Source: Nitrospirota bacterium
GTDB lineage: Bacteria > Nitrospirota > UBA9217
DNA: 64,000 bases
Assembly (NCBI GenBank): GCA_963754875.1
Contig: CAVWHO010000016.1
Coordinates: 320,001 to 384,000, forward strand
Reading direction: 5' to 3'
Positions 6,296 to 42,528 of this stretch are shown one piece after another (positions within the stretch are counted from its first letter, which is position 1; the number at the start of each line of letters is the position of its first letter). Position numbers and translations under genes: made by a program. The notes beneath the pieces are model-generated. The model saw only the letters and a list, made by a program, of their open reading frames with translations. It searched no databases and had not been told where the DNA came from.

Positions 6296-7159
6296 TTTGC
6301 AGTCTGCAACGTGTTGTACTTTATAAATCCTATTTTTACAGTCACATGTCAATGTGCTTGGATGTTACCTTAGTACACGGGAGGATATCCAGGCACGAAA
6401 AAGTAATCTCTGGAAATATGCTATCATTAAAAAAGTTTTATGATGGCGGGTATAAATAAGTTGCAATGTATTTTAATTCACGCATAAAAGGAGACGAATA
6501 TGGCAGCGTTAGAGGTCGTCAAGAGCATGAAGGGGTCCCTTACCAGACGTCCAACTATGAACACAAAGCATGAGGTTGAGTTTTCATTTGCTGCTCCAAA
6601 AGCCAAGAAAGTCTGCATCGCGGGGAATTTCAATGATTGGAATATGACATCGATGCCAATGAAAAAAAGCGCCGACGGTACCTGGAAAATAAAGCTTAAG
6701 TTTTCACCGGGGAAGTACGAGTATAAGTATGTGGCGGACGGGATGTGGGTTCAGGACATGTCGTGCTCCGAGACAGTGCTGAATCCTTACGGCACATGTA
6801 ATAACGTCATTGGCATCGAGTAAAAAAGCAGGGGGGAGTTAAATTCTTCGTGAGGAACGCGACAAGTTCATGTTAATCAGCGACCACCATTCCAAAACTC
6901 AATGGCTCTTTACAGACAAGCCCAGTACGGCGGTTTATACAGCTCGGGATATCATCGAGCTCTGGAACCCAATTTTGTTCGTTACCCATGACCCAGACGA
7001 TGGGTCATGGCATTTTTTCTCGGGTCCAACTGTTCCAGACACTGATGCTAGGATCGTTGCTCTTGATGAAATCATCTACGGTGATCCGAGCGTGATCGAG
7101 CTGGCTGATCTGCCGCGCGGATGGATTGCTGTTCGAGGGACCATTGAGACGCCTTGGCA
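6296..7159 (+). repeat. Direct duplication, copy 1 (copy 2 at 41604-42470)
   Basis: Aligns by eye with 41604-42470; identical from ~6910 to the end, more diverged in the upstream promoter part. Confidence 0.95.
6500..6823 (+). CDS. Stand-alone CBM48 / AMPK-beta-like glycogen-binding (isoamylase early set) domain protein, copy 1
   Basis: AKKVCIAGNFNDW...GTWKIKLKFSPGKYEYKYVADGMW...NPYG..NNVI; AGGAG RBS. Confidence 0.88.
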   Translation: MAALEVVKSMKGSLTRRPTMNTKHEVEFSFAAPKAKKVCIAGNFNDWNMTSMPMKKSADGTWKIKLKFSPGKYEYKYVADGMWVQDMSCSETVLNPYGTCNNVIGIE

Positions 7160-7226
7160 ACGGACAAATTTTTCCCACTACATCTTGCACACGATGTGCG
7201 CAAGTTCCTTGGAAAATGTCTCATAA
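6870..7226 (+). CDS. Hypothetical protein (DUF2185/Imm33-like), copy 1; C-terminus replaced by sequence antisense to the adjacent gene
   Basis: VTHDPDDGSWHFFSG...DPSVIELADLPRGW; matches 42181-42528 up to ETPW, then diverges and overlaps the convergent gene by 49 nt. Confidence 0.65.
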   Translation: MLISDHHSKTQWLFTDKPSTAVYTARDIIELWNPILFVTHDPDDGSWHFFSGPTVPDTDARIVALDEIIYGDPSVIELADLPRGWIAVRGTIETPWQRTNFSHYILHTMCASSLENVS

Positions 7227-8812
7227 TTGACCGAATAGTCGATAGGGCATTCGATGAGGACCACTGTTTTCAGGGAGAATGCCTTTCGCAGCAGTTCCGA
7301 TAAATCATCGCCCTGCCTCACTTTCATGCCCACGGCCCCGTAGCTTTCGGCGTACTTTACGAAGTCAGGGTTCCGGTAGTCGAGGCCGAAGTTCTCAAAT
7401 CCCTTGGCCTGCTGTTCCCACTTGATGAACCCGTAAGCATTGTCATTCAGCACCAGCACGACGATCGGAATCGAGTAACGAAGCGCGAGCTCGAGCTCGC
7501 GCGAGTTCATCATGAACCCGCCGTCGCCCACCACGGCGAGCACGTTCCGGTCGGGTCTCACCATCTTGGCCGCTATGCCGGTAGAAAGGCCCGCTCCCAT
7601 GGTTGCAAGGGCATTGTCCAGTAGAAAGGTATTGGGTTTATACGTACGATAGAGCCTTGAGAACCACAGTTTGTAGATCCCGTTGTCCAGGGTCACGATA
7701 TCCTCGTGCGACAGAACCTCACGCACGTGCCAGACGACTTCCTGCGGCGTCAGGGGATACTGTTTCTTAAAATCGAGCGACAGTTTTTCATCCAGGAATT
7801 CCCGGACCGCCGAAAAGGTTTCTCCGCTCTTTCTTCCCGCTATCAGCTCCCCGAGTTGCCGGAGGGAGCAGGAAATGTCGCCGATAATCTCGATGTCCGG
7901 GTTGTAGAAGGCATCGATTTCCGCGGCTGCAAAGTCGATGTTGATGATCTTTTTATCGAGGTCGCGGTTCCAGACAAAGGGCGGATACTCTACGATGTTG
8001 TACCCGATCGTGATGATGAGGTCTGCCAGGTCGATCCCGCAGTTCACATAATCGCGCCGGTGGATGCCTGTTGCGAAAAGGCTGTATTTCGATGCATCGC
8101 TCACCACGCCCTTACCCATTTGCGTATGGACCGCGTAAATGCCGGTCTTCTCGATGAATTGCATGAGCTGGCGCGTGATCAGGTTGCGGTTCGCGCCCGA
8201 TGAGAGAATGATGAGCGGATTTTTTGATTGATTGATCAGCTCTGCGGCCCGCAGGAGGGCCTTGGGATCGGGTGCAGGTCTGCGTACGAGACCACGCTTC
8301 TGCACCCGCGCTTCGGTCTTGCTTTCCGCGACATCTTCGGGAAGCTCAATGTGCACTGCGCCGGGCCGTTCGGCCTGGGCGAGTTTAAATGCGTTCCTAA
8401 CGATCGTCGGGACAGTCCCCGGGTCGATTATGGAGACGGCTTCCTTTGTAATCGGCCGCATCATGCTTACAATGTCGATAAGCTGGAACCGGGCCTGCCG
8501 GTTCCCGCGGACCGCCTTTTGTCCCGAGATGGAGATGAACGGCGCGCCGATCAGTTGGGCATGGGCAACGCCCGTCACCAGGTTCGTCGCCCCCGGGCCG
8601 AGGGTCGAAAAGCACACGCCGGCTTTTCCCGTCAAGCGGCCGTAGGTGGCCGCCATGAACGCCGCGGTCTGCTCGTGGCGCGTGACAATGAGCTTGATCT
8701 TCGACGTACGGAGCGACTCGAGAAAATCGAGGTTCTCCTCCCCGGGCACACCGAAGATGTATTCCACGCCCTCTTCCTCCAGCTGCCTCACGAACAGGTC
8801 CGATGCTTTCAT
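7178..8812 (-). CDS. ThDP-dependent acetolactate-synthase-large-subunit family enzyme; candidate 2-oxoglutarate decarboxylase
   Basis: FGVPGEENL, RHEQTAAFMA, STLGPGATNL, ThDP motif GDGGFMMN...NDNAYG; last gene of the acn-gltA-SSADH operon; no ilvN or ilvC nearby. Confidence 0.85.
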   Translation of the reverse strand: MKASDLFVRQLEEEGVEYIFGVPGEENLDFLESLRTSKIKLIVTRHEQTAAFMAATYGRLTGKAGVCFSTLGPGATNLVTGVAHAQLIGAPFISISGQKAVRGNRQARFQLIDIVSMMRPITKEAVSIIDPGTVPTIVRNAFKLAQAERPGAVHIELPEDVAESKTEARVQKRGLVRRPAPDPKALLRAAELINQSKNPLIILSSGANRNLITRQLMQFIEKTGIYAVHTQMGKGVVSDASKYSLFATGIHRRDYVNCGIDLADLIITIGYNIVEYPPFVWNRDLDKKIINIDFAAAEIDAFYNPDIEIIGDISCSLRQLGELIAGRKSGETFSAVREFLDEKLSLDFKKQYPLTPQEVVWHVREVLSHEDIVTLDNGIYKLWFSRLYRTYKPNTFLLDNALATMGAGLSTGIAAKMVRPDRNVLAVVGDGGFMMNSRELELALRYSIPIVVLVLNDNAYGFIKWEQQAKGFENFGLDYRNPDFVKYAESYGAVGMKVRQGDDLSELLRKAFSLKTVVLIECPIDYSVNYETFSKELAHIVCKM

Positions 8813-8952
8813 GAAATCTCCCTATAAAAAAGTAGAAGGACGATAGACGACCGCTTGTTTCACGCGCTAAGACGATGGACGTGTAAAGCATGACCCTGCC
8901 CTTTGGTCCACTGCGTCCATCTTCCCTCGTCCCTCGTCCTTCGTCTGCTATG

Positions 8953-10458
8953 CTACTCCCGCACCAGGACCGTCTTGATATTCACGAACTCCTTCAGGCC
9001 GAAATGCGAAAGTTCCCTTCCGATGCCGGACTTCTTCACGCCGCCAAAAGGCAGCCGCGGGTCAGATTTTACCATATCGTTGATCGTCACGGTCCCGGTC
9101 TCGATCTGCGTTGCAAGCCGTTCTGCCCGGTCGATATTTCTGCTCCAAATCGAAGCTCCGAGCCCGAATTCGGTGTTGTTCGCCACTTTGATCGCTTCAT
9201 CCTCGCTCTTAACTGTGATTATCGGAGCGATCGGTCCAAACACCTCTTCGGTCATGATCTTCATGCTGTCCGAGGCGTTCACCACCGCGCAGGGCGAAAA
9301 GAAATATCCCTTCTTGAAGGGAGCTTGGTCCGTCTGCAGCACCTTTGCGCCTTTCGCCTTGGCGTCTTTGAGCTGCTCGTTCAGGGACTGGAGAATGTCC
9401 TTCCTGGACAGCGGGCCCACGTCCGTGGTCTCGTTCATGGGATCGCCGACCTTGAGCTCCTTGAGCCGCGCCATAAAGTGCTTCGTGAATTCATCGGCCA
9501 CCTTGTCCATGACGATGAAACGCTTTGCCGCGATGCAACTCTGGCCCGCATTGATCATGCGCGCATTGGCCGCCGTCCGCGCCGACTTCTCGATGTCCGC
9601 GTCGTCAAGCACGATATAGGGGTCCGAACCGCCGAGTTCTAGCACGACCTTCTTGATTCTGGCCCCTGCATGGGCGCCGACCTCTTCACCGGCCTTGTTG
9701 CTGCCCGTGAGCGACACCGCGTCCACCTTGTCCTCGTCGATGAGTCTCAACGTTTCCACCGAGTTTATAAGCAGGGTCTTGAAGACACTCTCCGGGAAGC
9801 CCGCCTTCTTGAAGGAATCTTCGATGGCAAGCGCCGTCATCGGGACGTTTGACGCATGCTTCAGGACGACCACGTTCCCGGCTGCGATCGACGGCACGCC
9901 GAACCGGAAGGCCTGCCAGAACGGAAAGTTCCAGGGCATGATCGCGAGCACGACGCCGAGGGGCTGGAACATGACATAGCTCTTCTTTGCCTCCGTCTTG
10001 ATCTCCTCGGGCTTCAGAAACGCCTCCGCATTGTCGGCATAATAATCCGCGAGCCAGGCGCACTTCTCGACCTCGGCGAGCGATTCTTTAATGGGCTTGC
10101 CCATTTCCTTCGTAATGAGCTCGGCGTAATTGCGTTTCTCCGCCCTGAGCACCTCAGCCAGCTTCTTCACGTATTTCACGCGCTCGGTCACCGGGATGTC
10201 GCGCCATTTCAAAAATGCGTTTCGCGAGGCGTTCAGTTGCCAGTCAACCTCCTGCCTGCTCATGAGATTGAATTCTTTTATAATCTGTTCTGTATAAGGA
10301 TTAATCGACTGTATTTTCGTCGGTTTCCGAACAACTGATTTTAACGCAGATCCTGTTTTCATTTTTTTCACCCCCTGGGAGGATACGGCTCGTTTCTTTT
10401 TGGGGCGTGCAGTTCCTTTTTTCATTGCCGCCTTAGTACGTGCTTTCGTAGTCGCCAT
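8953..10458 (-). CDS. NAD(P)-dependent succinate-semialdehyde dehydrogenase (Sad/GabD1 type) with a basic N-terminal extension
   Basis: IMPWNFPFWQ, LKHASNVP, LELGGSDPYIV, NAGQSCIAAKRF, EEVFGP, SDPRLPFGGVKKSG. Confidence 0.9.
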   Translation of the reverse strand: MATTKARTKAAMKKGTARPKKKRAVSSQGVKKMKTGSALKSVVRKPTKIQSINPYTEQIIKEFNLMSRQEVDWQLNASRNAFLKWRDIPVTERVKYVKKLAEVLRAEKRNYAELITKEMGKPIKESLAEVEKCAWLADYYADNAEAFLKPEEIKTEAKKSYVMFQPLGVVLAIMPWNFPFWQAFRFGVPSIAAGNVVVLKHASNVPMTALAIEDSFKKAGFPESVFKTLLINSVETLRLIDEDKVDAVSLTGSNKAGEEVGAHAGARIKKVVLELGGSDPYIVLDDADIEKSARTAANARMINAGQSCIAAKRFIVMDKVADEFTKHFMARLKELKVGDPMNETTDVGPLSRKDILQSLNEQLKDAKAKGAKVLQTDQAPFKKGYFFSPCAVVNASDSMKIMTEEVFGPIAPIITVKSEDEAIKVANNTEFGLGASIWSRNIDRAERLATQIETGTVTINDMVKSDPRLPFGGVKKSGIGRELSHFGLKEFVNIKTVLVRE

Positions 10459-10555
10459 CTGCGCCCTCCCTAGAAATAGTTCAAAGTTTAAAAAGCAAAA
10501 AAGCAGAAATATGATTCAACCGCAAATTGCATCCGCTTGTGACTCACATCAACTT

Positions 10556-11776
10556 CTACTTCCTCTTCTCCATCGGCTCATACGTGCACCCTATCTTGCC
10601 GCAGTAGTTGCCGATGTACTCTGACGACGGCCGGTAGAGCGCCGGTTTTCCCTGGGCGTCGCCGAACTTCTCCTCGATGATGTGCGCGGTCCAGCCCGCG
10701 ATCCGGGCCACGGCAAAGACCGGCGTCATCAGGTCCTGCGGGATGCCCATCATGTGGTAGACCGAAGCGCTGTAAAAGTCCACATTCGGCTTGATCGTGG
10801 TCTTCCCGCGTTTCTTGAATTCGGCCACCGCAGTCTCCTCGATCTGCGTGGAGAGACGGTACCACTGCTCCTGTTCCAGCTTCTCCCCAAGCCGTTTGCC
10901 CATCTCCTTCAGGAATTTCGCCCTTGGGTCGGTTGTCTTGTACACGGCGTGGCCCATGCCCATGATCTTCCGGCCGCTGTCGAGCTGCTTTTTCACCCAA
11001 CCAGCGACATCCTTCTCATTTTGAAGCTCCATCAGCATCTTCATGACCTGCGCATTGGCCCCGCCGTGCAGGCTTCCGGAAAGGGCGCCCACTCCTGCGG
11101 CGACGCCGGCGTACATGTGCGCCTGCGTCGAGACCACCTCTCGGCAGGCAAAGGTCGAGGCATTGAATGAATGGTCCGCATGGAGCACGAGCGCGGTATC
11201 GAGGTCTTTCGCCGTCTCCGGATCCGGCTTGATCCCGCTCAGTTGCCAAAGAAAGTTCGCGGCATGAGAAAGCTTGTCATCGGACGGGAGCGGTTCCAGT
11301 TCCAATCGTATCCTCTGCCAGGAGGAGACGATTTCAGCTACCCGCGCGATGAGCCGGATGGCCTTCGACATGTTCGCCTCCCGCGTTTCCAGCACAAGCT
11401 CGGGATCAGTCGTTGCCAGCAGCGGTATCGATGCCTGGAGCACATCCATGGGTTGCGCCGCTGGGGGCAGTCGCTTCATGTTCTCAATCACGAAGCCCGG
11501 CAAGCGCCTCGCCTCGACGAGCCGCCGTGAAAAATCCTTGAGTTGCTCAGGCGTGGGCAGGCTGTCGTGGAGCAGGAGATAAGTGGTTTCTTCGAACGTA
11601 GAATATCTTGCCAGGTCTTCTATCCGATAACCGCGATAGATAAGAACGCCATTCTCACCATCCACGTCGGAGATCTTCGTATCCGCAATGGTGACACCGC
11701 GCAGGCCGACGTTTTTTGTTGTTGCATCCTCGGTTGTTCTCTGTTTCATTTCTCTTGTTTGAGCATTTGCAACCAT
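10556..11776 (-). CDS. gltA: Citrate synthase (citrate/2-methylcitrate synthase family)
   Basis: GLRGV, LIYRGY, HADHSFNAST, GSLHGGAN, MGMGHAVYKTTDPR, PNVDFYS. Confidence 0.93.
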   Translation of the reverse strand: MVANAQTREMKQRTTEDATTKNVGLRGVTIADTKISDVDGENGVLIYRGYRIEDLARYSTFEETTYLLLHDSLPTPEQLKDFSRRLVEARRLPGFVIENMKRLPPAAQPMDVLQASIPLLATTDPELVLETREANMSKAIRLIARVAEIVSSWQRIRLELEPLPSDDKLSHAANFLWQLSGIKPDPETAKDLDTALVLHADHSFNASTFACREVVSTQAHMYAGVAAGVGALSGSLHGGANAQVMKMLMELQNEKDVAGWVKKQLDSGRKIMGMGHAVYKTTDPRAKFLKEMGKRLGEKLEQEQWYRLSTQIEETAVAEFKKRGKTTIKPNVDFYSASVYHMMGIPQDLMTPVFAVARIAGWTAHIIEEKFGDAQGKPALYRPSSEYIGNYCGKIGCTYEPMEKRK

Positions 11777-11798
11777 GGCTGACACCTTCCTTTTTGAA

Positions 11799-13742
11799 CT
11801 AAGCTGCCATGAGCAGTTCTCTCTTCACAAAATTCAGCGTGCCGCCTGCCAGCAAATGCCTGCGCTGGCGGTCGGACACGTCCAGGAACGTGATGATCGT
11901 TTCTCCGTCCACCTCGACCGGGATCTCCCGATCTCCCCGCTCCAGCCGTCGTTTTACATCGGGAAACGCGACCTTCGTGCCTTTGTTCAGCCTTTCGTAG
12001 TCCGCAGGATCTTTGAACGTGAGCGGGAGGATGCCGAAGTTGCAGAGATTGGACTTGTGGATCCGGGCAAAGCTCTTGACGATCTTTGCGCGTACGCCGA
12101 GATAGCGCGGCGCCAGGGCCGCATGCTCGCGGCTCGATCCCTGGCCGTAGTTCTCGCCGCCCACGACGACCACCGTACCCCGGGCCCGGCACTCTTTCGC
12201 GAAATCGGGATCGACCTGGGAAAACACGAACTCGGACAGCGCTTCGATGTTCGAACGGAACGGCAACACGCGGTTGCCTGCCGGCATGATCCCGTCCGTC
12301 GACATGTTGTCTCCCACTTTCAACACGACCTCGGCTGCGAGCGTGTCAGGCAGCGGACCGAGCTCCGGCAGCGGCTTGATGTTCGGCCCGCGGACGATCT
12401 CCGTCTTTTTGAGTTCGTCTGATGGGAAGACAATCGACTTCTCGTCGATCAGATACTGTTTCGGGTCTTCGATCGCAGGATACGCCATCTCTTTTGCCAG
12501 ATCGCGGGGATCGGTTATGACGCCCTTAATGGCTGCCGCGGTCGCTGTCTCGGGCGAGCAGAGATAGATCTTGTCGTCCTTGGTCCCGCTTCTTCCCGGA
12601 AAGTTCCGCGGAAACGTTCGCAGGCTCACTTCGCCGGTGCCCGGCGCCTGGCCCATGCCGATGCATCCCTGGCACCCGGGCTCGTGCACCCGCGCGCCCG
12701 AGGTGAGAAAGGAGAGGAGACCGCCTGCCTGATAGACATTTTCGAGCACCTGACGGCTGCCGGGGTTCACGTGGAACGACGTGTCGGGATGAACGCGCCT
12801 GCCTTCGAGCATCTTGGCGGCGATCATCAGGTCCCGGAAGGAGGAGTTCACGCTGCTGCCCACGATGGCCTGGTCGACTTTGAGGCCTGCGATCTCCCGC
12901 ACCGGCACAATATTTCCCGGCGACGACGGCTTGGCAATCAGGGGCTCCAGCTTCGAAAGATCGATCTCGGCATATTCATTGTACAGGGCGCCTTCGTCGG
13001 CAGAAAGCGGGACCCAGGAAGCGCCCCGTCCCTGGGCGATCATATACTCCCGCGTACGTTCATCGGACGGGAAGATCGAGGTCGTGGCGCCCGTCTCGGT
13101 TCCCATGTTGCCGATGGTTTCCCGGTCCGTGGCTGAAAGGGTTTTCACGCCCGGTCCGTAATACTCGATGATCTTTCCCACGCATCCCTTGACGTCGTAG
13201 CGCCTGAGCATTTCGAGGATCACGTCTTTCGCACTCACCCAATCGGGAAGCTTCCCAATGAGCTTCACCCCGAGGACTTTGGGGCAGGGGAGAAAGTAAG
13301 GGTAACCGGCCATGGCCAGTGCCACGTCCAGCCCGCCTGCGCCGATGCCGAGCATCGAGATGCCGGCGGCCCCCGGGGTATGACTGTCCGCGCCGAGGAG
13401 GGTCTTGCCCGGGACGCCGAAACGCTCCATATGCACCTGGTGGGAAACGCCGTTACCGGGCCTGCTGAAATTGACGCCGTACCGGGCGGCCGCGGTCTGG
13501 AGAAATTTATGGTCGTCCGCGTTCTTATTGTCCGTCTGGAGGAGGTTGTGGTCCACATACTGCGCGGCGAGCTCGGCTTTCACCCGGTCGATGCCGATTG
13601 CTTCAAACTCCAGCATCGCAAGTGTGCCGGTCGCGTCCTGCAGTAAGGTATGGTCGATCGTGATGCCGATCTCCCTGCCCGGGACCAGCTCTCCCTCCTT
13701 CAGATGGGCTTCCAAAATCTTATTCGTAAGGTTTTTTTTCAA
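11799..13742 (-). CDS. Aconitate hydratase (short, ~650-aa type)
   Basis: LQDATGT, YVDHN, GADSHT, GCQGCIGMGQAP, TFPRNFPGRSG, NYGQGSSREHAALAP; TTG start. Confidence 0.93.
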   Translation of the reverse strand: MKKNLTNKILEAHLKEGELVPGREIGITIDHTLLQDATGTLAMLEFEAIGIDRVKAELAAQYVDHNLLQTDNKNADDHKFLQTAAARYGVNFSRPGNGVSHQVHMERFGVPGKTLLGADSHTPGAAGISMLGIGAGGLDVALAMAGYPYFLPCPKVLGVKLIGKLPDWVSAKDVILEMLRRYDVKGCVGKIIEYYGPGVKTLSATDRETIGNMGTETGATTSIFPSDERTREYMIAQGRGASWVPLSADEGALYNEYAEIDLSKLEPLIAKPSSPGNIVPVREIAGLKVDQAIVGSSVNSSFRDLMIAAKMLEGRRVHPDTSFHVNPGSRQVLENVYQAGGLLSFLTSGARVHEPGCQGCIGMGQAPGTGEVSLRTFPRNFPGRSGTKDDKIYLCSPETATAAAIKGVITDPRDLAKEMAYPAIEDPKQYLIDEKSIVFPSDELKKTEIVRGPNIKPLPELGPLPDTLAAEVVLKVGDNMSTDGIMPAGNRVLPFRSNIEALSEFVFSQVDPDFAKECRARGTVVVVGGENYGQGSSREHAALAPRYLGVRAKIVKSFARIHKSNLCNFGILPLTFKDPADYERLNKGTKVAFPDVKRRLERGDREIPVEVDGETIITFLDVSDRQRRHLLAGGTLNFVKRELLMAA

Positions 13743-14098: not shown

Positions 14099-16768
14099 CT
14101 ACTCCGGATTCGGCCCGACCGTAATCTGGACGAAATCCGCGGGCCGGACCCATTTGGCAAATGCGTCTCGCACCTGGTCCGCTGTTGTCTCCAGAAACTT
14201 TCCCGCAGCCCGGACAGACTCGTCGAGCGGCAGATCGTCGAGTGAACGGGAGAGCAGCGTTCCGGCGATGCCGTCCATGCTCGCTTCCCCGAGCGGGACC
14301 TGTCTTACCAGGAGCGTCTTGGCACGCCGCAGTTCCTCCTCCGTGACCGGCGTCGTCTGCATCTCGCGCAGGTTGCGCTCCACCATGGCCCGTGCTTTGG
14401 ACGCATTCGGCGGGTCACAGGCATAGGCGACGCCAAAGAGTGACCTGTTCTTTCCCGCCTCAATGAACGAGTCCACGGTATAGACCAGGCCAGCCTTCTC
14501 GCGCAGGTCGCGGTACAGCCGCGTGGCATAGAATGCGCCGGACAGCACGTGGTTGCCGAGCTGGAGTTTATAATAGTCGGGATGTGTGCGCGTCACCCCG
14601 ACCGTCTCGGCGAGCGTCACCTGGTCCTGGACCCTGCTCGCGTCGGGTATGACGGGACGTTGATGGTTTGTTCGGCGGCACCGGCGGGAGGTCTGTTTGA
14701 GGCTTTTTCCCCGCTGCTTTCCATGCGCCGAAATATTTTTCAACCGCTGCCCGCGCCCGCTCAGGCGTCACCTGCCCGATGATCACGATGGTCGTCATGT
14801 CCGGACGGAAGGCCTTTGCGTAATAGGCCTTTACGTCCTTGAGAGTAAGCGTTGCCACAGACTTCGGCGTGGCGTCGCGGAGGACCGGGTCGTCCTTGGG
14901 ATAGAGAGCTTCGCGCAGCGCTCGTTGCGAAAGATAGGCTGGGCTCTGGATCTGCCCCTGAAGAGAGCCGATCGTTTCCTGCTGACTCACGGTAAATGCT
15001 GATTCGGGAAGCGCCGGGTGCAGCAGGTTGTCTGCAAGGAGCTCCATTCCGCGCTCGAATCGGTCCGAAAGGACCCTGAGCGAGAACGACGTGCCCGCTG
15101 ATATGTCCGCCGCAATGTCGTCCTGGGCCTTCTGGAAGGCGATCCGATCAAGGGACGTCGTCCCGTATGAGAAAAGGCCCCCCAGCACGTCCGAAACCCC
15201 TTCTTTGTCCATCGGCTCCTCAAGATCGTCGTTGTTTTTCACCTGCCCGATGAGGCTGACGGTGGGGCTTACACTCTCCGGCTGAACGATCAAGCGGATC
15301 CCGTTGGGGAGGATGGTCACGACGGGGCTTAACTTCGACGTTGGAAGGACAGGCACTGCCTCCGCCTTCTTGGCCCAGGCGGGAAGTTCAACCGGCTTGG
15401 TGCCGCTCGGCGCGAAGGACTCCCTGCCCCCGAAGCCCTTCGAAGCCACGGGTTTGCCCGAGGGGCGAGGTGTGAGAACGGCCGTGATGGCCGTATCGTT
15501 AATCAGGTACTGTCTGGCCACGCGCTTCACGTCCTCTACCGTCACCTTCCTGATCGCATTGATGTCGTCATCAGGAGAGCTGCGGCCCTCGATTGCGACG
15601 GCCTCGGACCAGGCGGATGCAAGTCCTGCCACGGAATTCTTCTGGAATTCCGCATCTGCTATTTCATGCCGCTTGGACGCTTCGACAAGGTCGGCCGGCA
15701 CGCCGTTCTTCAGGTACCCGGCAATGATGTTCTTTAGCATGCTTACCAGCGCCGCTCCGTCCCCTCCCTGGGGAAACGCAGCGAGCGCATAGCCATACCC
15801 TGCCTTGGGCAGAATGCCTCCGTCGAAGGTGGTAAAGAGCGCTTTCCCCTCAGGGACCAGGGCGTAGAGATTTCCTCTCTTACTGTCCAGCACATCGGCA
15901 AGAATCGTTCCTGCAGCGAAATCCGGGCTGTCATATCCCGGCAGACGATAGGCCACGACCGCAAGTCCGTAGGGAAGATCGGTATCGAGGGCGATGGACG
16001 CCGCCTTGGGCGGCTGCAGAGTGATTGCTGGCCGTGCTGGCACGAGACCGCCGGGGGATCGGCTCGAACAGTTCCTTCACCTTTGCCAGCGTTTTCTGCG
16101 GGTCTGACGTCGCCTACGATGACGAGGACGGCATTGTTCGGAGCGTACCAGGTATCATAGAACTGCTTCAGCATGGCGCCCGTTGTCTTCTGGAACGAGG
16201 GGCGCGTGCCGAGCGCGTCATGGGCATAGGGCGTCCCCGTGAACATCGCCGCCAGGAGCTGCATGGAAAAAAGATAATCCGGGCTCGACAGATCCTGCGC
16301 CACCTCCTGTTCGATCGCACCCCGTTCCTGCTCCCAGAGCTCCTGCGAGTCGAGCACGCCGTGCATACGCATGGCTTCCACGTTCAGGGCCACGTCGAGG
16401 TCGTCCTTCGGCACGGTAAAAAAATACTGGGTCACGGTCTGCTGCGTGTCGGCGTTAAACTCGCCGCCCATGAGCGCCATGATGTTCGAGAGCTGGGCCG
16501 CGGACAGCCCCGGGCTCCCGCGAAACATCATGTGTTCCTGCGCGTGCGCCGTGCCCGGGAACCCCTCCGGCGCTTCATTGGAACCGACGAGATAGTTCAC
16601 CTCCGTGGTCACCACCGGCGCCAGTTGGTTTTCCACGATCACGACGCGCAGGCCGTTTTCTAAAGTCGCGCGCAGCACAGCACCGTTCGCGGCATACAAT
16701 GTTGAAACAATGACTATCAGAAATAATGTACTGAACGAAAAGAAGAGAAGTGACTTACAAGTCTTCAT
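14099..16768 (-). CDS. M16 family zinc peptidase (pitrilysin/PqqL-like), split by two frameshifts
   Basis: Inverted zinc motif HAQEH; ORFs 15743-16768, 14568-16043 and 14099-14743 carry consecutive M16 domains. Confidence 0.88.
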
Positions 16769-22285: not shown

Positions 22286-23615
22286 TCAAAATTTTTCTCC
22301 TGTGGGAAAATTGACACTATATTCTGTTCCGTAATGGGCAGTTACAAGGTTTCCCCTCAACTTCTCGGCATGCAATATCCGTTTTACAGCCAGTTCGTAT
22401 GCCGCCTTGCGCATTCTGCATCGGGTTTCCCGACAGCGGCTCTGGACGTCGTTGAAGGCCGTGGTCATGATCTCCTTCAGCCGGGCAAGTACTTTTTCTT
22501 CAGGCCAGGCGTCTCCGTTCAGGTTCTGGCTCCATTCGAAGTAGCTGACCACAACGCCTCCCGCGTTGGCGAGAATGTCCGGGATGAGGAGGATGTCCCG
22601 GTTAAAGAGAATATCATCAGCTGCCGCAGTCGTCGGCGCATTGGCGAGTTCAAGAATGAACTGCGCTTTCACGTCCTTTGCATTGTTCGCGTCGAGCTGG
22701 TTCGAAAGCGCCGCGGGTATCAGCACATCGCAATCGATTGTAAGGAGCTCGGAGTTGGTGATGTCCCGTGCGCCGGGAAAGTGAACGATGGTGCCCGTCT
22801 TTTTTTTGTGCTCTCTGATCGCCGGGATGTCGAGGCCCTGCGGGTTCAGGATGCCGCCGTTGACATCGCTCACGGCCATGACGTTGTAGCCTCGTTCATG
22901 AAGGATACGCGCTGCGTTTTCACCCACGTTGCCGAACCCCTGGACCGCAACGCGAAGCCCGCGGGGATCCATGCCGCGGTCCTTCAGGGCCTGTTCGAGC
23001 ACATGGATACCACCCAGGGCAGTGGAATATCTGCGCGCCACGATGCCGCCCAGTTCCGGAGGTTTGCCCGTGACCACGGCGGGCACATGCTCGCGCTTGA
23101 TCCGTTCGAATTCATCGAGGATCCACGCCATGATCTGTTCGTCGGTGTAGACGTCCGGCGCGGGAATATCTTTGAACGGGCCGATGTAGTCGGCGATGGC
23201 CCGGATGTAGCCGCGCGTCACAAGTTCGAGGTCCCGCCGGGAGATGTCCATCGGGATTGACGACCACGCCGCCTTTTGCGCCGCCGAAGGGAATGTTCAC
23301 GACCGCGCACTTGAGTGCCATGAGAAAGGCCAGTTCGCTGGCATGCTCTGCGTTCATCTCCGGGTGGAACCGGATGCCGCCCTTGGCCGGCCCGCGGGCG
23401 TCGTTGTACTGCACGCGAAAGCCCGTGAACATCTGCGTCTTGCCGGTCGTCATCTTGACCGGAAAGCTTACCGTAAAGGACTGCCGCGGCACGGACAGGA
23501 GATCAAGTGCGTCCTGGGTAAGTCCCAAGTCGGTGTAGATCGTCTGCAGTTCGGTCATGCCGACGCTGCGGAGATCTTTTTCGTCTCGGTGGAGCCGGTC
23601 GTGGTTGCGGTTCAT
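22286..23615 (-). CDS. gdhA: Glutamate dehydrogenase (Glu/Leu/Phe/Val family), one frameshift near 23250
   Basis: [59 protein letters not shown]; the 3' end may be extended by an indel. Confidence 0.88.
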
Positions 23616-23711
23616 GAACACCTCGAAGGCAGTTCAAAGTTCAGCGATCATAGTGCAAAGTAAAAATCTTGCTTCTTCAACTCGGAACTGTGAACTTTGA
23701 ACTCTGAACTA

Positions 23712-25135
23712 TTATTTTGTCAGTCCCGTCTTCTTCGCCGTTTCAGAAACGGCCGCGGCAACGCGGGCCGGGACTTCCCGGTCAAAGGGGCTGGGAATGA
23801 TGTAATCTTCGTGCAGCTCTTCGGTCTCGATACACATGGGCTATGGCCTTGGCAGCCGCGAGTTTCACGGCTTCGTTCACGCCATGGGCCCGCACGTCGA
23901 GGAGCCCGCGGAACATGCCGGGGAAGCCGAGCATGTTGTTGATCTGGTTCGGGTAGTCGGACCGTCCCGTTGCCATGACCCGCACCAGGTCGTGGACATC
24001 CTCGGGCGAGATCTCCGGGTCAGGGTTTGCAAGGGCGAAGACAACGGGGTCCTTTGCCATTTTCCTCACGTCGTCGGCGGAGATCACGTTCGGAGCCGAA
24101 AGACCGATGAAGACGTCAGCTCCCTTCATGGCGTCCGAAATGCGGCCTTTCAGTTTCCGCGGGTTCGTCACTTTCGCGAGCTCGCGCTTGGCGGGGTCCA
24201 TACCCTGCTTTCTGCCGACGGAGAGGACGCCGGTGCTGTCGCACACGGTGATGTCCTTGACGCCCGAGGCCAGGAGGATTTTGGTCACTGCCGTGCCCGC
24301 GGCGCCTGCGCCGACCACGACGACCTTGAACTTTTTGATGTCCCGCTTCAAGAGCCGCGAGACGTTGATGAGCGCGGCCAGCGCAACGACCGCGGTCCCG
24401 TGCTGGTCGTCATGGAACACGGGGATGTCGAGCAGCTTTCTGAGCCTTTTTTCGACCTCAAAACAGTGGGGCGCGGAAAAATCTTCCAGGTTGATGCCGC
24501 CGAAGGCCGGCGCTATGTTCTTCACGGTCTCGACGATCTCGTCCACGTTCTGTCGTGGCGAGCACGATCGGGAAGGCATCGATATTGGCGAACTCCTTGA
24601 AGATCATCGCCTTGCCTTCCATGACGGGAAGCGCTGCTTCGGGCCCGATGTCGCCGAGGCCCAGGACAGCAGTGCCGTCGGATATGACGGCAACGGAATT
24701 GCCTTTTATGGTGTAGCGGTAGGCATGCTCTTTATTCTGAAAGATGTCCATGCACACGCGCGCCACACCCGGGGTATAGACCTTGGAGAGGTCGTTCCGG
24801 TCCCGTAGCGGCAGCTTGTTTTTGATCTCGATCTTTCCGCCTTCATGGGCCAGGAACGTGCGGTCCGAGACCCTGATGACCTTGACGCCCGTAACGGTCC
24901 TGATCGCTTTTACAATGGCCTTTTCGTGTTCTTCGTTCTGGGCGTTTACGGTGATGTCGCGGATGATCTTGCCCTTTTCCACGCGCACGATGTCCACGGA
25001 GCCCAGGTCGCCGCCTGCGCTCGAAATGGCCGTGGCGATCCTCGCGAACATCCCGATCCTGTTCTCAATCTCCACTCTGATGCTGATGCTGTAGCTGGGA
25101 CTGCAGCTGTAGTCGGACGTGCATGCGTCGCTCAT
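23712..25135 (-). CDS. NAD-dependent malic enzyme with N-terminal ACT domain, two frameshifts
   Basis: YTPGVA, DGTAVLGLGDIGP, VMEGKA, GINLEDF, FHDDQHGTA, GAGAAG, ATGRSDYPNQINN; the C-terminus (YIIPSPFDR) ends at TAA 23712 in another frame. Confidence 0.9.
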
Positions 25136-25184: not shown

Positions 25185-25467
25185 CTCTGGTTCGCATTAT
25201 AATAATAAATAATAGAGGAAGACGAACGACGTCTTGTCGGCAATAATTCCAAGTTGAGTTTTTCTCTTTTTTAAAAATCACGGTGCAAAAAATAAATGAA
25301 GCAGGTATAATTCCCTCCGTAATTTTTTCGTACGGCGTTTTATTGCAAAGATGCGCGGCTTCGAAACCAATCCGAAGCCGTTCCTCTGGACATTTTTTGA
25401 CTTTGCGATTATACTGCCATTGTTCCGCGATTCATTATTCCGGCGCCGGAAGTGATAAAGGACGACT

Positions 25468-26863
25468 ATGACCGACTTTCGCATCGAAAAAGATTCCCTC
25501 GGGGAAGTAAAGGTCCCGAAAGATGCGCTCTACAGCGCCCAGACGCAGCGGGCTGTAGAAAACTTTCCCGTGAGCGGCATCGGCTTTTCCCGCGCCTTCC
25601 TCCGCGCCCTCGGGCTCATCAAGGCCACGGCCGCAGAGGTGAACGCCGGGCTCGGGTCTGCTCGATGCCACGATCGCCCATGCAATTCATCTCGCTGCTC
25701 TCGAAGTGTCTGACGGAAAATGGGACGACCAGTTCCCGCTCGACATTTACCAGACCGGCTCCGGCACGTCCACAAACATGAACGCAAACGAGGTGATCGC
25801 GAGCCGCGCGACCCAGATCCTCGGCGCTTCGGCAAAGCCCGTCCATCCGAATAATCATGTGAACATGGGCCAGTCGTCGAACGACGTCATTCCTGCCGCC
25901 ATCCATGTGAGCGCTTATCTCGAAGTAAGCGAAAAACTTCTGCCTGCGCTCAGGCACCTTCAGGGAACGCTCAAGAAGCGCGAAGCGGAGTTTCATGATA
26001 TAGTAAAAACGGGCAGGACCCATTTAATGGACGCCATGCCGGTAAGGCTCAGCCAGGAGATAAGCGGCTGGGCGTACCAGGTTGAGCTTGCAGTCGCCAG
26101 GATAGAATCCACCCTGCCCCGCCTGGCACAGCTCGCTATCGGCGGCACTGCCGTAGGCACGGGCATCAACGCACCTAAGGAGTTCGGCAAGATCGTGGCG
26201 AGCAGGCTTGCAGGCAGCACCAAGCTCCCCTTTGTCGAAACAGCGAATCATTTTGCCGCGCAGGCAACCATGGATTCCGCAGTCGAGCTCTCCGGGCAGT
26301 TGAAGACCACTGCATCGTCATTCATGAAGATGGCCAACGACCTCCGCTGGATGAACAGCGGTCCTATCGCAGGACTGGGTGAGATCTCCCTGCCGTCACT
26401 GCAGCCGGGATCGAGCATCATGCCCGGCAAGGTAAACCCCGTTATGTGCGAGATGATGATGATGGTCTGCGCCCAGGTCACGGGGAATGACGCCGCGATC
26501 ACGATCTGCAACCAGCAGGGCAATTTCGAGCTGAACGTCATGCTCCCGGCCGTAGCGCATAACCTGCTGCAGTCCATACAACTCATGGGGAACGCGGCGC
26601 GGCTTCTTGCGGACAAGGCCGTTGCCGGCTTTATTGTGAACAAGGAACGCATTGCGGGCCTGGTGGACCAGAACCCGATCCTCGTGACAGCGCTCAATCC
26701 CGTGATCGGTTACGACAAGGCCGCGCAGATCGCAAAAAAGGCTTATGCAGAAAAACGGTCCGTAAAAGACGTTGCCGCGGAAATGACGGGTCTGTCGAAG
26801 GCTGAATTGAACAAACTTCTCGATCCCGTGCCCATGACCGAGGGCGGGATCACCCAGGAGTAG
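25468..26863 (+). CDS. fumC: Class II fumarate hydratase, frameshifted near 25660-25710
   Basis: [39 protein letters not shown], signature [11 protein letters not shown]. Confidence 0.92.
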
Positions 26864-26890: not shown

Positions 26891-27567
26891 ATGAACTATC
26901 TTACCCACTTCCACAGTAAGCAGAAAGATCCTCATGGCCGTTTCCGGCCAGATACTCGTCTTCTTCATCCTCTTTCACATCGTTGGCAACTCTACGATTT
27001 TTTTCCACATGCTGAATGCCTACGTCGTCGGCCTCCACCATTTGCCGCTTCTGGTCTGGGGAGGCAGGCTCGTTCTCCTCGCTGCCTTCGCAATCCACAT
27101 CTATTACGGCATTGTGCTCAAGCTCGAAGAATTATGCCGCAAAGCCCCAGGCCTACGCCATGACCCGTTTCCGTCAGGCCACGTTCTCAGGCAGATACCA
27201 GATCTGGTCCGGCGTCGTGCTCCTTGCGTTTGTCGTTTACCATCTGCTCCAGTTCACCTTCCTGGTCCTCATCGACCCCTCGATCGCGCCGGCATCCCAT
27301 CCGGACGCGATGGGCAAGCCCGACGTGTTCACGATGGTCGTACGCAGTTTCCAGGAACCGGGAATCTCTCTGGCGTACCTCATCGCCCTGGGGGCGCTGA
27401 TGCTGCACCTGCTCCACGGCATCCAGAGTTCGTTCCAGACCTGGGGCCTCACCAGCGAGACAGCGCTCCCGGTGATCGAAACGTCCGGGACCATCGCGTC
27501 GATCATGCTGTTTCTGTGGTATATAGCGATCCCCGGCGTGATTGTTTTGGGAATATTGAAAGGTTGA
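26891..27567 (+). CDS. sdhC: Succinate dehydrogenase/fumarate reductase cytochrome b subunit, frameshifted
   Basis: [32 protein letters not shown] and [15 protein letters not shown] heme-His segments lie across frames. Confidence 0.85.
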
Positions 27568-27661
27568 AGAAGCAGAGCGCATGGCGCAGAGAGCAGAGGG
27601 GATGAGGAATCAGGCTACCCCATGCTCCATGCGCTATGCTCCCTGCACGGAGCATACGACT

Positions 27662-29575
<1,914 letters not shown>

Positions 29576-29660
29576 CGAACCGTTTAAACGTTAAAACGGT
29601 CAAGCGTCAAACGATCTACACCTTAAAGAACGAACACACTTTTTTCGAAGAGGTTGAAAC

Positions 29661-30401
29661 ATGAATCTGACATTATACGTCTGGCGACAACGCAACTCCG
29701 CGGACAAAGGCAAACTCGTTCAGTACGAAGCGAAGGACATCGAGAGCGACGTGTCCTTTCTTGAAATGCTCGATGTCCTGAACCAGGAATTGATTAAAAA
29801 GGGTGAAGAGCCCATCGCCTTCGACAGCGACTGCCGGGAAGGCATCTGCGGCATGTGCGGTCAGGTCGTGAACGGCATACCGCACGGCCCGCAGAAAAAG
29901 ACGACCGTCTGCCAGCTTCACATGCGCCACTTCAAGGACGGCGATACGATCTACATCGAACCCTTCCGCGCCAAGGCCTTCCCGGTCATAAAGGACCTCA
30001 TCGTTGACCGCGGCGCCTTTGACAAGATCATCCAGGCCGGAGGCTACGTCTCGGTCCACACCGGAGGCGTGCCTGACGGGAACACCATCCTGATTCCCAA
30101 ACAGGACGCGGACACGGCCATGGATGCTGCCGAGTGCATCGGCTGCGGGGCCTGCGTTGCTGCCTGTCCGAACGGCTCGGCAATGCTCTTTACCTCGGCC
30201 AAGGTGTCCCATCTCGCTCTGCTGCCGCAGGGAAAAGTAGAGGCCGCCAGACGCGTCTGTGCCATGACCGAGGAAATGCTGAACCAGGGCTTCGGCAACT
30301 GCAGCAATCATTATGAGTGCGAAGCGGTCTGTCCCAAGGGCATCAAAGTCAAATTTATCGCAAAGCTGAACCGGGAGTTCATCAAGGCCCAGATCACGTA
30401 G
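29661..30401 (+). CDS. sdhB: Succinate dehydrogenase/fumarate reductase iron-sulfur subunit
   Basis: [37 protein letters not shown]. Confidence 0.95.
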
Positions 30402-39301: not shown

Positions 39302-41089
39302 TTACTTCAGCCGTTTTCTGAATTCGTCGAGCTGTTTTGTAAGCCTCACGGGCAGCCGCTTCCCGAACAAAGCAAAGTGTTTCTCGATGTCGGGAATCTC
39401 GGCTTTCCAGGAAGCGATGTCCACGTTCATGAGTGCCTGCAGGTTCCCGGACGAGATCGTGAGGCCCGTCAGATCGAGATCCCCGTCCTTGGGCATGAGG
39501 CCGATCGGTGTCTCCTTGGCGCCGATCTTGTTGTCGACGCGGTCGCACATCCATTTAAGCACGCTGCTGTTGTCGCTGAAACCGGGCCATAGGAACTTGC
39601 CTTCGGCGCTCTTCCGGAACCAGTTGACGTAAAAGATCCGCGGGGCTTTCGCACCAAGGCGGTCGCCCATCGCAAGCCAGTGCTGGAAATAGTCGCCCAT
39701 GTGATAGCCGAGGAACGGCTTCATCGCAAAGGGGTCGCGCCTGAGGTTGCCCACTGCGCCGATGTTCGCGGAGGTGGTCTCCGAGGCTGCCGTGGCGCCC
39801 ATGAACACGCCGTGGTCCCAGGAATAGGCCTCGGTCACGAGCGGGACGACCGTGCTTCTCCTCCCGCCGAAGATGAAGATGTCGATGGGCACGCCCTCGG
39901 GGTCGTCCCAGCAATCGCAGATCACCGGGCATTGCGCTGCCGGCGCGGTAAAGCGCGCGTTCGCGTGGGCAGCGTCTTCGCGGCTTTCCGGGGGCCAGTC
40001 CCGGCCTTTCCAGTCGATCACGTGGGCCGGCGTTTCCTCGGTCATGCCCTCCCACCACACGTCGCCGTCGTCCGTGAGCGCGCAGTTCGTGAAAATGATG
40101 TTCTCCTTGAGCGTGTCCATGGCCATGGGATTGGTATTGTAGGACGTGCCGGGCGCAACGCCGAAGAAACCGGTTTCGGGGTTTAGCGCGTGGAGCCTGC
40201 CGTCGCTCTTGATCTTCATCCAGGCGATGTCGTCGCCGACGCACTCGCACTTCCACCCTTTGAGGGACGGCTGCATCATGGACAAGGTTCGTCTTGCCGC
40301 AGGCTGAGGGGAACGCCGCTGCGATGTTGTAGCGTTTTCCCACCGGGCTGGTCAGGCGAAGGATCAGCATGTGCTCCGCCAGCCATCCTTCGCGCCTCGC
40401 CATGTTCGAGGCGATCCTGAGGGCGAGGCACTTTTTCCCCAAAAGGGCGTTGCCGCCGTAGCCGGAGCCGTAGGACCAGATCAGGTTCTCCTCGGGGAAA
40501 TGGCTGATGTATTTCTGCTCGATCGGGGCACAGGGCCAAGAACTGTCCTTTTGTCCCTTTTCAAGCGGAGCGCCGATGGAATGGAGGCAGGGGATAAACT
40601 CTCCCTTTTCTCCGAGCACGTCCAGGACTTTCGTGCCGACACGGGTCATGATATGCATATTGCAGACGACATAAGGGCTGTCGGTCAGCTCGACGCCGAT
40701 CTTCGAAATCGGCGAGCCGATGGGCCCCATGGAGAAAGGGATCACGTACATCGTGCGGCCCTTCATACAGCCCTGGTACAAGCCCCGCATGGTTTTCTTG
40801 AGCTCGTCGGGTGCACCCAGTTGTTCGTGGGGCCAGCCTCTTCCCGGGAGGTCGTGCTGATGTACGTTCGGTCCTCAACGCGGGCAACGTCGCTGGGGTC
40901 GGTGCGGAAGAGAAAACTATTCGGTCTTTTCTTGAGAGGGATCGCCATGCCAAGGTCCTGCATGAGCTTCATCAGCCTGTCGTATTCTGCCTTTGATCCG
41001 TCGCACCAGACGACCGAGTCAGGCTTGCACAGTTCTACGACCTCGTGGACCCAGCTGTTCAGTTTTTCATTTTTCGATCCGCTTTTCAT
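39302..41089 (-). CDS. pckG: Phosphoenolpyruvate carboxykinase (GTP), two frameshifts
   Basis: [66 protein letters not shown]. Confidence 0.93.
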
Positions 41090-41603
41090 GGATAGTCACC
41101 TCGATTCCCGGCTGCCTGTTGCCTGACAGTCACCTCATACAATGGTTGCAGCGCTTGTTCAGTGTTTGAGAGTTATGGAAAGGTATTATGCACAATTGGT
41201 TGAAAAAAGTAAAGCGATGTTTGGCCTGCGGGGAGAGACTTTCGTCCCTGCTCAAGGCTGGGTAGCAGATCGAAGGAATCAGGAAACCACGGAATGAAAA
41301 GCCCGGCAGGAATAATATTATAGGGGGGAGACTCCCCGAAAAAGATGCGTCTGAGCACGGGAAGGAGCATCTTCACATTTCAACTAAAATAAGATCAAAA
41401 TAATATTCTGAAAGCACAGCTTCACTTATGATCATGCACTGCCAATATTAGTAAGGGCTTGCACACCGCATCGAGCGAGGCGATTGAAAATGTGTTATCT
41501 CTGCCTCAAAACCCGGGGTATTTCAAATCAATGAATGGCTGTTATATCCCATCGTGCTTAGGATGGCCGCCGATGGTCTTAATCGCAAGGCAGGTAGCGC
41601 ATA

Positions 41604-42470
41604 TTTGCAGTCTGCAACGTGTTGCACTTTCGTGAATCCCATTTGTACAGTCTCATGTCGATGTGCTGGGATGTTACCTTAGTACACAGAAGAACATTCA
41701 GGCGCGAAAACGTGAGCTCTGAAAATATGCTATCATTAAAAAAGTTTCTTTATGATGGCGGGTATAAATATGTTGCAATGTATTTTAATTCACGCATAAA
41801 AGGAGACGAATATGGCAGCGTTAGAGGTCGTCAAGAGCATGAAGGAGTCCCTTAGCAGGCGTCCGACCATCGGCACAAAGCATGAGGTTGAGTTTTCATT
41901 TGCTGCTCCAAAAGCCAAGAAAGTCTGCATCGCGGGGGTTTTCAATGATTGGAATATGACATCGATGCCAATGAAAAAAAGCGCCGACGGTACCTGGAAA
42001 ATAAAGCTTAAGCTTTCACCGGGGAAGTACGAGTATAAGTATGTGGCGGACGGGATGTGGGTTCAGGACATGTCGTGCTCCGAGACAGTGCTGAATCCTT
42101 ACGGCACATGTAATAACGTCATTGGCATCGAGTAAAAAGCAGGGGGGAGTTAAATTCTTCGTGAGGAACGCGACAAGTTCATGTTAATCAGCGACCACCA
42201 TTCCAAAACTCAATGGCCCTTTACAGACAAGCCCAGTACGGCGGTTTATACAGCTCGGGATATCATCGAGCTCTGGAACCCAATTTTGTTCGTTACCCAT
42301 GACCCAGACGATGGGTCATGGCATTTTTTCTCGGGTCCAACTGTTCCAGACACTGATGCTAGGATCGTTGCTCTTGATGAAATCATCTACGGTGATCCGA
42401 GCGTGATCGAGCTGGCTGATCTGCCGCGCGGATGGATTGCTGTTCGAGGGACCATTGAGACGCCTTGGCA
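41604..42470 (+). repeat. Direct duplication, copy 2 (copy 1 at 6296-7159)
   Basis: Near-identical to 6296-7159. Confidence 0.95.
41812..42135 (+). CDS. Stand-alone CBM48 / glycogen-binding domain protein, copy 2
   Basis: Differs from 6500-6823 at six residues. Confidence 0.88.
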   Translation: MAALEVVKSMKESLSRRPTIGTKHEVEFSFAAPKAKKVCIAGVFNDWNMTSMPMKKSADGTWKIKLKLSPGKYEYKYVADGMWVQDMSCSETVLNPYGTCNNVIGIE

Positions 42471-42528
42471 TCGTCATCCGATTGCAACGAAGAACTGTGC
42501 CGGCGATGATGCACTCATGAGAACCTAA
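42181..42528 (+). CDS. Hypothetical protein (DUF2185/Imm33-like), copy 2, probably the intact one
   Basis: Same core as 6870-7226 with its own non-overlapping C-terminus. Confidence 0.7.
   Translation: MLISDHHSKTQWPFTDKPSTAVYTARDIIELWNPILFVTHDPDDGSWHFFSGPTVPDTDARIVALDEIIYGDPSVIELADLPRGWIAVRGTIETPWHRHPIATKNCAGDDALMRT

Follow-up and report, generated by a model that had tools for sequence, protein, structure and literature searches.

We analysed a stretch of 64,000 nucleotides from a Nitrospirota bacterium (GTDB lineage Bacteria; Nitrospirota; UBA9217; GenBank assembly GCA_963754875.1, contig CAVWHO010000016.1, positions 320,001 to 384,000 of the forward strand), hereafter the window, in which a run of four genes joins two tricarboxylic acid (TCA) cycle enzymes to an aldehyde dehydrogenase (ALDH) and a thiamine diphosphate (ThDP)-dependent enzyme. 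Positions are counted from the first nucleotide of the window. All four genes are intact and lie on the minus strand. The run begins with acn (11799..13742), encoding a 647-residue aconitase of the PRK07229/TIGR01342 type that scores above cut-off with NF005558 (956 bits, cut-off 612) and TIGR01342 (891 bits). It continues with gltA (10556..11785), encoding a type II-like citrate synthase of 409 residues (PF00285; TIGR01800 422.0, cut-off 421.3) whose open reading frame (ORF) has a GTG start and an alternative in-frame ATG 9 nt later. The third gene (8953..10458) encodes the 501-residue ALDH and the fourth (7178..8812) the ThDP enzyme, a 544-residue member of the PRK08322 family (NF006187/PRK08322 789, cut-off 509) that carries the sequence VPGEENL. 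The gaps between successive ORFs are 13, 97 and 140 nt, and the four co-oriented, closely spaced genes of the original prediction are confirmed both as ORFs and by profile matches. Also as predicted, ilvN, ilvC and an acetolactate decarboxylase (AlsD) gene are absent from the window's ORF lists, which were read by eye, and the host genome gives no match to the AlsD profile PF03306. Spacing and conservation lead us to infer co-transcription of the four genes. The window scan returned six promoter-like sites (2.7 +/- 1.7 in shuffles), none of them on the minus strand upstream of acn, and 11 terminator-like sites (8.0 +/- 2.8 in shuffles). We consider it likely that the run encodes a bypass of the cyanobacterial OgdA/SsaD type, in which the ThDP enzyme would act as a 2-oxoglutarate (2-OG) decarboxylase and the ALDH as a succinic-semialdehyde dehydrogenase (SSADH).

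The best PDB matches of the ALDH are 3VZ1 and 4IT9, both named 'succinate-semialdehyde dehydrogenase' and aligned without gaps over residues 49-499 (451 residues; E 1.7e-131), ahead of Sad proteins. The nearest counterpart of the ALDH is cyanobacterial SsaD. In the numbering of PMC7510979, available excerpts of which give C262, E228 and N131 as catalytic, K154 and S157 as NADP determinants and W135, R139 and S419 as binders of the carboxylate of succinic semialdehyde (SSA), the window ALDH has all nine equivalents tested (W130, N131, W135, R139, K154, S157, E228, C262 and S419). The offset was set from the PDB alignment, and the W135/R139/S419 triad was used without a control for its exclusivity to SSADHs. 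The complete set recurs in 40 of 43 ALDH loci of the host family; two others carry S157A and one is truncated. The PDB match and the nine residues support the SSADH of the original prediction, and the gene product is likely an SsaD/Sad-type SSADH, predicted to prefer NADP. It bears a Lys/Arg-rich N-terminal extension of ~45 residues (10315-10458) that is variable, and absent in some relatives.

The ThDP enzyme belongs to a family whose NCBIfam name is 'acetolactate synthase large subunit', yet it falls below the cut-offs of the AlsS models (455 vs 510; 422 vs 551) and of the IlvB model TIGR00118 (370 vs 538). For comparison, 55 loci with the cyanobacterial OgdA motif were retrieved; a 550-residue protein of Microcystis aeruginosa NIES-4325 fits all 17 residue numbers published for the 2-oxoglutarate decarboxylase MaKGD (available excerpts of PMC10418658). 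This protein, labelled acetolactate synthase in the database, is taken to be the assayed MiKGD by the fit of its length and residue numbers. Its identity to the window enzyme is 44%, compared with 32% for an AlsS and 30% for the IlvB of the same genome. We built trees with FastTree (119 of 127 rows, eight distant ones being dropped) and with IQ-TREE (40 chosen rows), rooted on one long IlvB row, and the two agree. AlsS-like rows form a single clade (100/100), and the other PRK08322-like rows, among them OgdA and the lineage that we call clade B, form one group with AlsS and IlvB outside (95/90). The enzyme is accordingly no bona fide AlsS or IlvB, as originally predicted. The expected grouping with cyanobacterial OgdA was not recovered: clade B (99/99), which holds the window enzyme, arises within the OgdA-like lineages but apart from the cyanobacteria, and an approximately unbiased (AU) test rejects the operon enzymes and the cyanobacteria as one clade (p-AU 1.4e-55, for a group named after the first tree was seen). 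Clade B has the motifs FQ, LDNGxYK (DNG-x-x-K) and DNALATMG where OgdA has HQ, DVGAHK and SNGFAAMG.

The cofactor and catalytic residues of the PRK08322 type are kept (E47, D430, D457, M405; the catalytic Glu and the GDG-x-N motif). Among the residues mutated in MaKGD, five of six are identical in the window enzyme, the exception being L467F. The K386 position of MaKGD is Lys in 51/51 clade-B rows and 66/70 other PRK08322-like rows, in 0/5 AlsS-like rows, and not in IlvB. Judged by its sequence, the enzyme falls outside OgdA strictly defined, and since it belongs to a separate clade and differs in the residues modelled to contact 2-OG (see below), its substrate is argued from context. The 2-oxoglutarate decarboxylase of the original prediction therefore stands in part: its distinction from IlvB and AlsS and its SSADH partner speak for it, but close orthology to cyanobacterial OgdA does not hold. 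A second PRK08322 paralogue (L001:7995-9614; G000 C20:185994; 715 bits) is also encoded in the host genome. In the tree it falls on the OgdA side, its motif reads DVGTCK, without H385, and no ALDH gene is next to it. In four genomes (G019, G135, G055 and G012) a prpC-type citrate synthase gene is only a few kb away, and the paralogue may be tied to propionate/methylcitrate metabolism.

The run is conserved across the host family. The surroundings of the ThDP gene were read in 43 of the 46 family genomes with a match (G115, G145 and G171 were left out), giving 44 loci because the gene of G008, split across two contigs, was counted twice. All four genes occur together in 37 of the 44 loci, so the arrangement is more than chance; two of the others lack acn, four have only the ALDH and ThDP genes (three of them at contig ends) and one is a 3' fragment. 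The ALDH gene is directly upstream of the ThDP gene in 43/43 genomes examined. Two apparent departures were rejected: the ThDP gene 'missing' from G125 is present but frameshifted, in a run with one inserted gene, and an ALDH-ThDP fusion in G118 proved to be a run of N. Of the 53 family genomes that are at least 85% complete, the ThDP gene is present in 45 (G125 counted), and of these 44 have the ALDH and 42 sdhA. Six of the 53 lack both the ThDP and the ALDH genes, and four of these (G084, G068 and G088, which are 97-99% complete, and G150) also lack citrate synthase, a joint loss that we count in favour of a 2-OG bypass.

Further genes of a wider TCA neighbourhood lie 8-17 kb past acn: glutamate dehydrogenase (gdh; 22286..23621, minus strand; two ORFs here, the C-terminal part matching GdhA models below cut-off), malic enzyme (mae; 23782..25135, minus strand; two frames here, with a partial NF009501 match), class II fumarase (fumC; 25706..26863, plus strand; a TIGR00979 match of 491 bits, under the cut-off, that begins at position 79 of the profile) and a succinate dehydrogenase/fumarate reductase, sdhC-sdhA-sdhB (26934..30401, plus strand). 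SdhA (NF005749 1141, cut-off 866; TIGR01811 920, cut-off 541) and SdhB (NF005746 434, cut-off 243) are above cut-off, and sdhC is assigned by position and reading only. The fumarase N-terminus appears to lie upstream in another frame (broken region 25452-26863). The order gdh-mae-fumC-sdhC was found again in 5/5 family loci checked, with glutamate dehydrogenase as a single ORF of 423-434 residues in all five and fumarase ORFs intact in relatives (462-515 residues). Where sdhA and the ThDP gene are both placed (42 genomes), they are 14-27 kb apart in 21 and on different contigs in the other 21. An M16 peptidase-like gene (14099-16768) and a PEPCK-like gene (39555-41126) are also broken in frame in the window. 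These breaks, like those in the glutamate dehydrogenase, malic enzyme and fumarase genes, are probably assembly indels, because relatives carry intact M16 peptidase-like, glutamate dehydrogenase, malic enzyme and fumarase ORFs. A near-identical pair of small ORFs (one AMPK/glycogen-binding-like by reading, the other a hypothetical protein of 115-118 residues) occurs at 6500-7226 and, 35 kb away, at 41812-42528; the ThDP gene shares 49 nt at its 3' end with one of the copies.

The host genome (G000) encodes an NADP-dependent isocitrate dehydrogenase (NADP-IDH), Mdh and SdhAB above cut-off, together with dsrA and acetyl-CoA synthase, the latter present in 49/54 family genomes. The sucA gene of 2-oxoglutarate dehydrogenase (OGDH; TIGR00239) was found in 0/41 genomes searched, G000, 90% complete, included. 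No sucC was found in G000, and 7/53 family genomes have it, vs 100/167 genomes from other families in the phylum sample. Fused KorA was likewise not found in G000; it occurs in 1/12 genomes of its genus and 35/53 of the family. The AarC-type CoA-transferase (TIGR03458) is above cut-off in 0/54 family genomes. There is no other clear source of SSA, because G000 yielded no Gad and no GabT above cut-off. A separate ilvB (C17; TIGR00118 866, cut-off 538) sits in a cluster read as ilvD-ilvB-ilvN-ilvC-leu. Two points stand in the way of reading a phylum-wide anticorrelation of PRK08322 with sucC: related genomes are not independent, and the out-of-family matches belong mostly to other branches, with no ALDH neighbour (0/20 and 0/3 loci). 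In several other families of the phylum (L173, L174, L175, L176 and L178-L181) the ThDP gene is of the OgdA side and has no ALDH gene with it; by reading, it stands behind a HAD-like phosphatase gene and/or ahead of nadB-like genes, another conserved context. G000 also has a prpC-type citrate synthase paralogue (C8; NF009006 674) in a prpC-prpD-aconitase cluster (L003:6361-12003) whose aconitase gene is split over several frames. The genome's second PRK07229 aconitase (C22; L004:7521-9461) is 54% identical to the operon copy.

Outside the family, the nearest outgroup protein returned 80 metagenome loci, all of clade B, of which 30 have an ALDH gene within 400 nt. Ten SsaD-type neighbours were checked, seven of them readable along their whole length; the nine residues are complete in six of these, and the seventh departs at S157 alone. 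A Pfam scan covered 60 of the 99 listed neighbour ORFs, and most were unrelated. In L220, a ThDP gene (65%) is followed by icd (TIGR00183 above cut-off), acn, gltA and sdhA, a gene order different from that of the window. An IDH-like gene (443-448, cut-off 510) is immediately upstream of the clade-B gene in L271 and L287, and a citrate-type transporter is close to it in L262 and L269. A glutamate-synthase-family gene accompanies the ThDP gene in L238, L277 and L279 (3/80 loci) and in Leisingera L144. Fusions of a ThDP enzyme with an ALDH are seen in P0122, a clade-B protein, and in P0174. These contexts (icd, citrate transporters, the glutamate-synthase family, the ALDH fusion) point to 2-OG. 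Each of the two ThDP branches is found with either ALDH type (L144, L146 and L147, the cyanobacteria and the window run), which fits a shared reaction. In L271 (3846-11647) and L287 (3914-11620) the ThDP gene stands ahead of PhaE-like and CoA-transferase genes, and in L271 an iron-type alcohol dehydrogenase (ADH) and a class III PhaC (TIGR01836 above cut-off) were confirmed. By their gene content, these two loci are candidates for a natural route from 2-OG through SSA and 4-hydroxybutyrate to polyhydroxyalkanoate (PHA). In Skermanella L142 the ThDP gene follows araD, and an ADH gene and a CoA-transferase gene of the type seen in L271 and L287 are also present.

A number of observations weigh against the bypass. 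Proteobacterial plasmid proteins (49-50% identity) resemble the ThDP enzyme more than the assayed KGD does (44%); cyanobacterial homologues were absent from the plasmid matches listed. Six residues contact 2-OG in a docking on a model of MaKGD (Q254, V382, K386, A408, L467 and K471; available excerpts of PMC10418658), and only two are identical here (K386 as K381, A408 as A403), with Q254H, V382N, L467F and K471E as differences. The K471 position is Glu in 119/120 close homologues, a conserved Lys standing two residues before it. Where OgdA and AlsS share an HQ motif, the enzyme has FQ, like IlvB. Among PDB sequences the nearest is 13BB, whose motifs resemble those of clade B and whose title is 'acetolactate synthase'; a published description of 13BB, 9ZGL or 24PI was not found in the literature search. 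Matches in the ESM Atlas were 'acetolactate synthase' clusters only. With the AlphaFold model (pLDDT 92), the nearest Foldseek folds are AlsS (TM 0.91-0.94, 33% identity); a fold match does not tell the substrate, and neither a KGD structure nor 13BB was among the matches listed. No assay of a clade-B enzyme was found in the literature, subscription papers being outside the search. Among the 30 clade-B loci with long flanks, 14 have no adjacent ALDH and 16 have one. The window ALDH, although top-ranked with NF006915, is under that model's cut-off (547 vs 730), but so are a cyanobacterial ALDH (670, one SsaD locus) and a haloarchaeal one. At the level of the genome, G000 is 90% complete. It also encodes the alpha subunit of a VorB-type 2-oxoacid:ferredoxin oxidoreductase (OFOR; 549, cut-off 399; C14:60746-61837), probable OFOR beta/gamma subunits on another contig (C21:68939-70293) and an AcdAB-like acyl-CoA synthetase. 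Together these could in principle provide an alternative ferredoxin-dependent route from 2-OG through succinyl-CoA to succinate. The genome check thus agrees with the original prediction as to sucA, sucC, fused KorA and a separate ilvB, but the VorB-type OFOR speaks on the other side. Finally, the bypass is not strictly compensatory, because 28/45 operon-type genomes have fused KorA and 7/45 have sucC.

The four docked contacts unlike MaKGD, K471 among them, would also suit a decarboxylase/dehydrogenase pair for another 2-oxoacid (pyruvate to acetaldehyde and acetate, 2-oxobutyrate, or oxaloacetate), which would feed or trim entry into the TCA cycle; some clade-B genes do lie next to ADHs or to the other ALDH type, without W135/R139/S419. 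We regard this as unlikely. The window partner retains the triad that binds the SSA carboxylate, clade-B neighbours elsewhere make or supply 2-OG, and PDH-like and PorAB-like genes are available for pyruvate in G000. In addition, the other ALDH type also partners an OgdA-side enzyme (L147), and the conserved basic residues R108, R253, K381 and K464 could stand in for K471. Still less probable is a FAD-independent acetolactate synthase whose position in the run is incidental. The PRK08322 label, the AlsS folds (TM up to 0.94), the title of 13BB and the IlvB-like FQ motif would agree with it, but the assayed NIES-4325 KGD bears the same label, all three AlsS and IlvB profile scores are below cut-off, AlsS-like rows form their own clade, the genome has a true ilvB elsewhere and no AlsD match, and an ALDH partner would be senseless for acetolactate. 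About as improbable is that the enzyme activates 2-OG mainly to ligate ThDP-bound SSA to an acceptor, leaving the ALDH to clear leaked SSA: mycobacterial Kgd forms 2-hydroxy-3-oxoadipate with glyoxylate (available excerpts of PMC10418658) and the pocket is unlike that of OgdA, but none of the family loci read shows a gene that accompanies the run and would supply the acceptor or use the product, and the fixed ALDH pairing and the fusions fit release of the free aldehyde.

Under the favoured bypass, GltA would condense acetyl-CoA and oxaloacetate to citrate, Acn would convert citrate to isocitrate and the NADP-IDH encoded elsewhere would yield 2-OG. The ThDP enzyme would then decarboxylate 2-OG to SSA and CO2, and the SSADH would oxidise SSA to succinate with formation of NAD(P)H and without CoA. 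SdhCAB, encoded 13 kb from acn, would convert succinate to fumarate, FumC fumarate to malate and Mdh malate to oxaloacetate. The result would be a CoA-free oxidative TCA cycle, closed in a lineage that bears dsrA and acetyl-CoA synthase, and the linked glutamate dehydrogenase could drain glutamate into the same cycle. The genes, their families, synteny and residues and the searches for alternatives are observed; the substrate of the ThDP enzyme, co-transcription and the direction of flux are deduced from them. With more reserve, we lean towards a broader proposal: that PRK08322 clade B makes up a second and widespread 2-oxoglutarate decarboxylase family with its own active-site design, hidden by the 'acetolactate synthase' label, that it completes a CoA-free oxidative TCA cycle in this Wood-Ljungdahl/dsr Nitrospirota family, and that it feeds a 4-hydroxybutyrate/PHA route elsewhere (L271, L287).

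The pathway and its chemistry are already known and were anticipated outside cyanobacteria. As retold in the available excerpts of PMC12214013, Zhang and Bryant reported in 2011 that some methanogens and anaerobic bacteria carry closely related genes, and the original claim of unusually direct evidence for the shunt in a non-phototroph thus overstated its novelty. A description of this operon was not found in the literature, subscription papers being outside the search. What appears new is a distinct enzyme branch, with a function proposed from sequence and context, a lineage-wide TCA cluster and varied contexts linked to 2-OG. According to the available excerpts of PMC11033732, basal classes of Nitrospirota have incomplete cycles, and a horseshoe without SucCD is described; the host family presumably belongs among those classes. 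If the bypass is real, organisms scored as having an incomplete cycle would have a complete one, metabolic reconstructions of the lineage would need correction, and full oxidation of acetyl-CoA or glutamate would be open to these bacteria with neither OGDH nor succinyl-CoA involved. A large branch of mis-annotated proteins would gain a testable function and a motif signature, and non-cyanobacterial KGD candidates would become available for succinate or 4-hydroxybutyrate engineering.

Among known systems, the cyanobacterial OgdA/KGD and SsaD enzymes (Synechococcus sp. PCC 7002 A2770/A2771, Synechocystis Sll1981, Microcystis MaKGD/MiKGD) offer the main comparison. Like OgdA/KGD, the window enzyme depends on ThDP and bears the acetolactate synthase label; it shares 44% identity with MiKGD and has 11 of the 17 residues named in the available excerpts of PMC10418658 (E50, K386, A408, M410, G434-G437, D462, Y465 and Y531). 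Its SsaD-type partner is immediately upstream, as in 25/55 loci with the cyanobacterial motif, and OGDH was not found in the genome. Unlike OgdA, it belongs to a separate clade with LDNGxYK, DNALATMG and FQ for DVGAHK, SNGFAAMG and HQ. Its gene pair shares a run with gltA and acn and has sdhCAB, fumC, mae and gdh linked to it, and its hosts are Nitrospirota with dsrA and acetyl-CoA synthase, mostly without sucC, whereas PCC 7002 has sucCD. AlsS of Bacillus subtilis (4RJJ) and Klebsiella (1OZF) are the nearest solved folds (TM 0.91-0.94, 33% identity), but the window enzyme is below the AlsS cut-offs and in another clade, its host genome lacks an AlsD match, and AlsS-like rows show Y, Q or H in place of its K381 and Q in place of its A403. 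IlvB acetohydroxyacid synthases share the superfamily and the FQ motif; identity to the genome's own IlvB, which sits in the ilv/leu cluster, is however 30%. In the CoA-transferase variant of the TCA cycle in Desulfurella acetivorans (available excerpts of PMC9768450), an anaerobe likewise closes its cycle by a non-classical step to succinate, but that variant needs succinyl-CoA and a CoA-transferase, for which TIGR03458 is above cut-off in none of the 54 family genomes.

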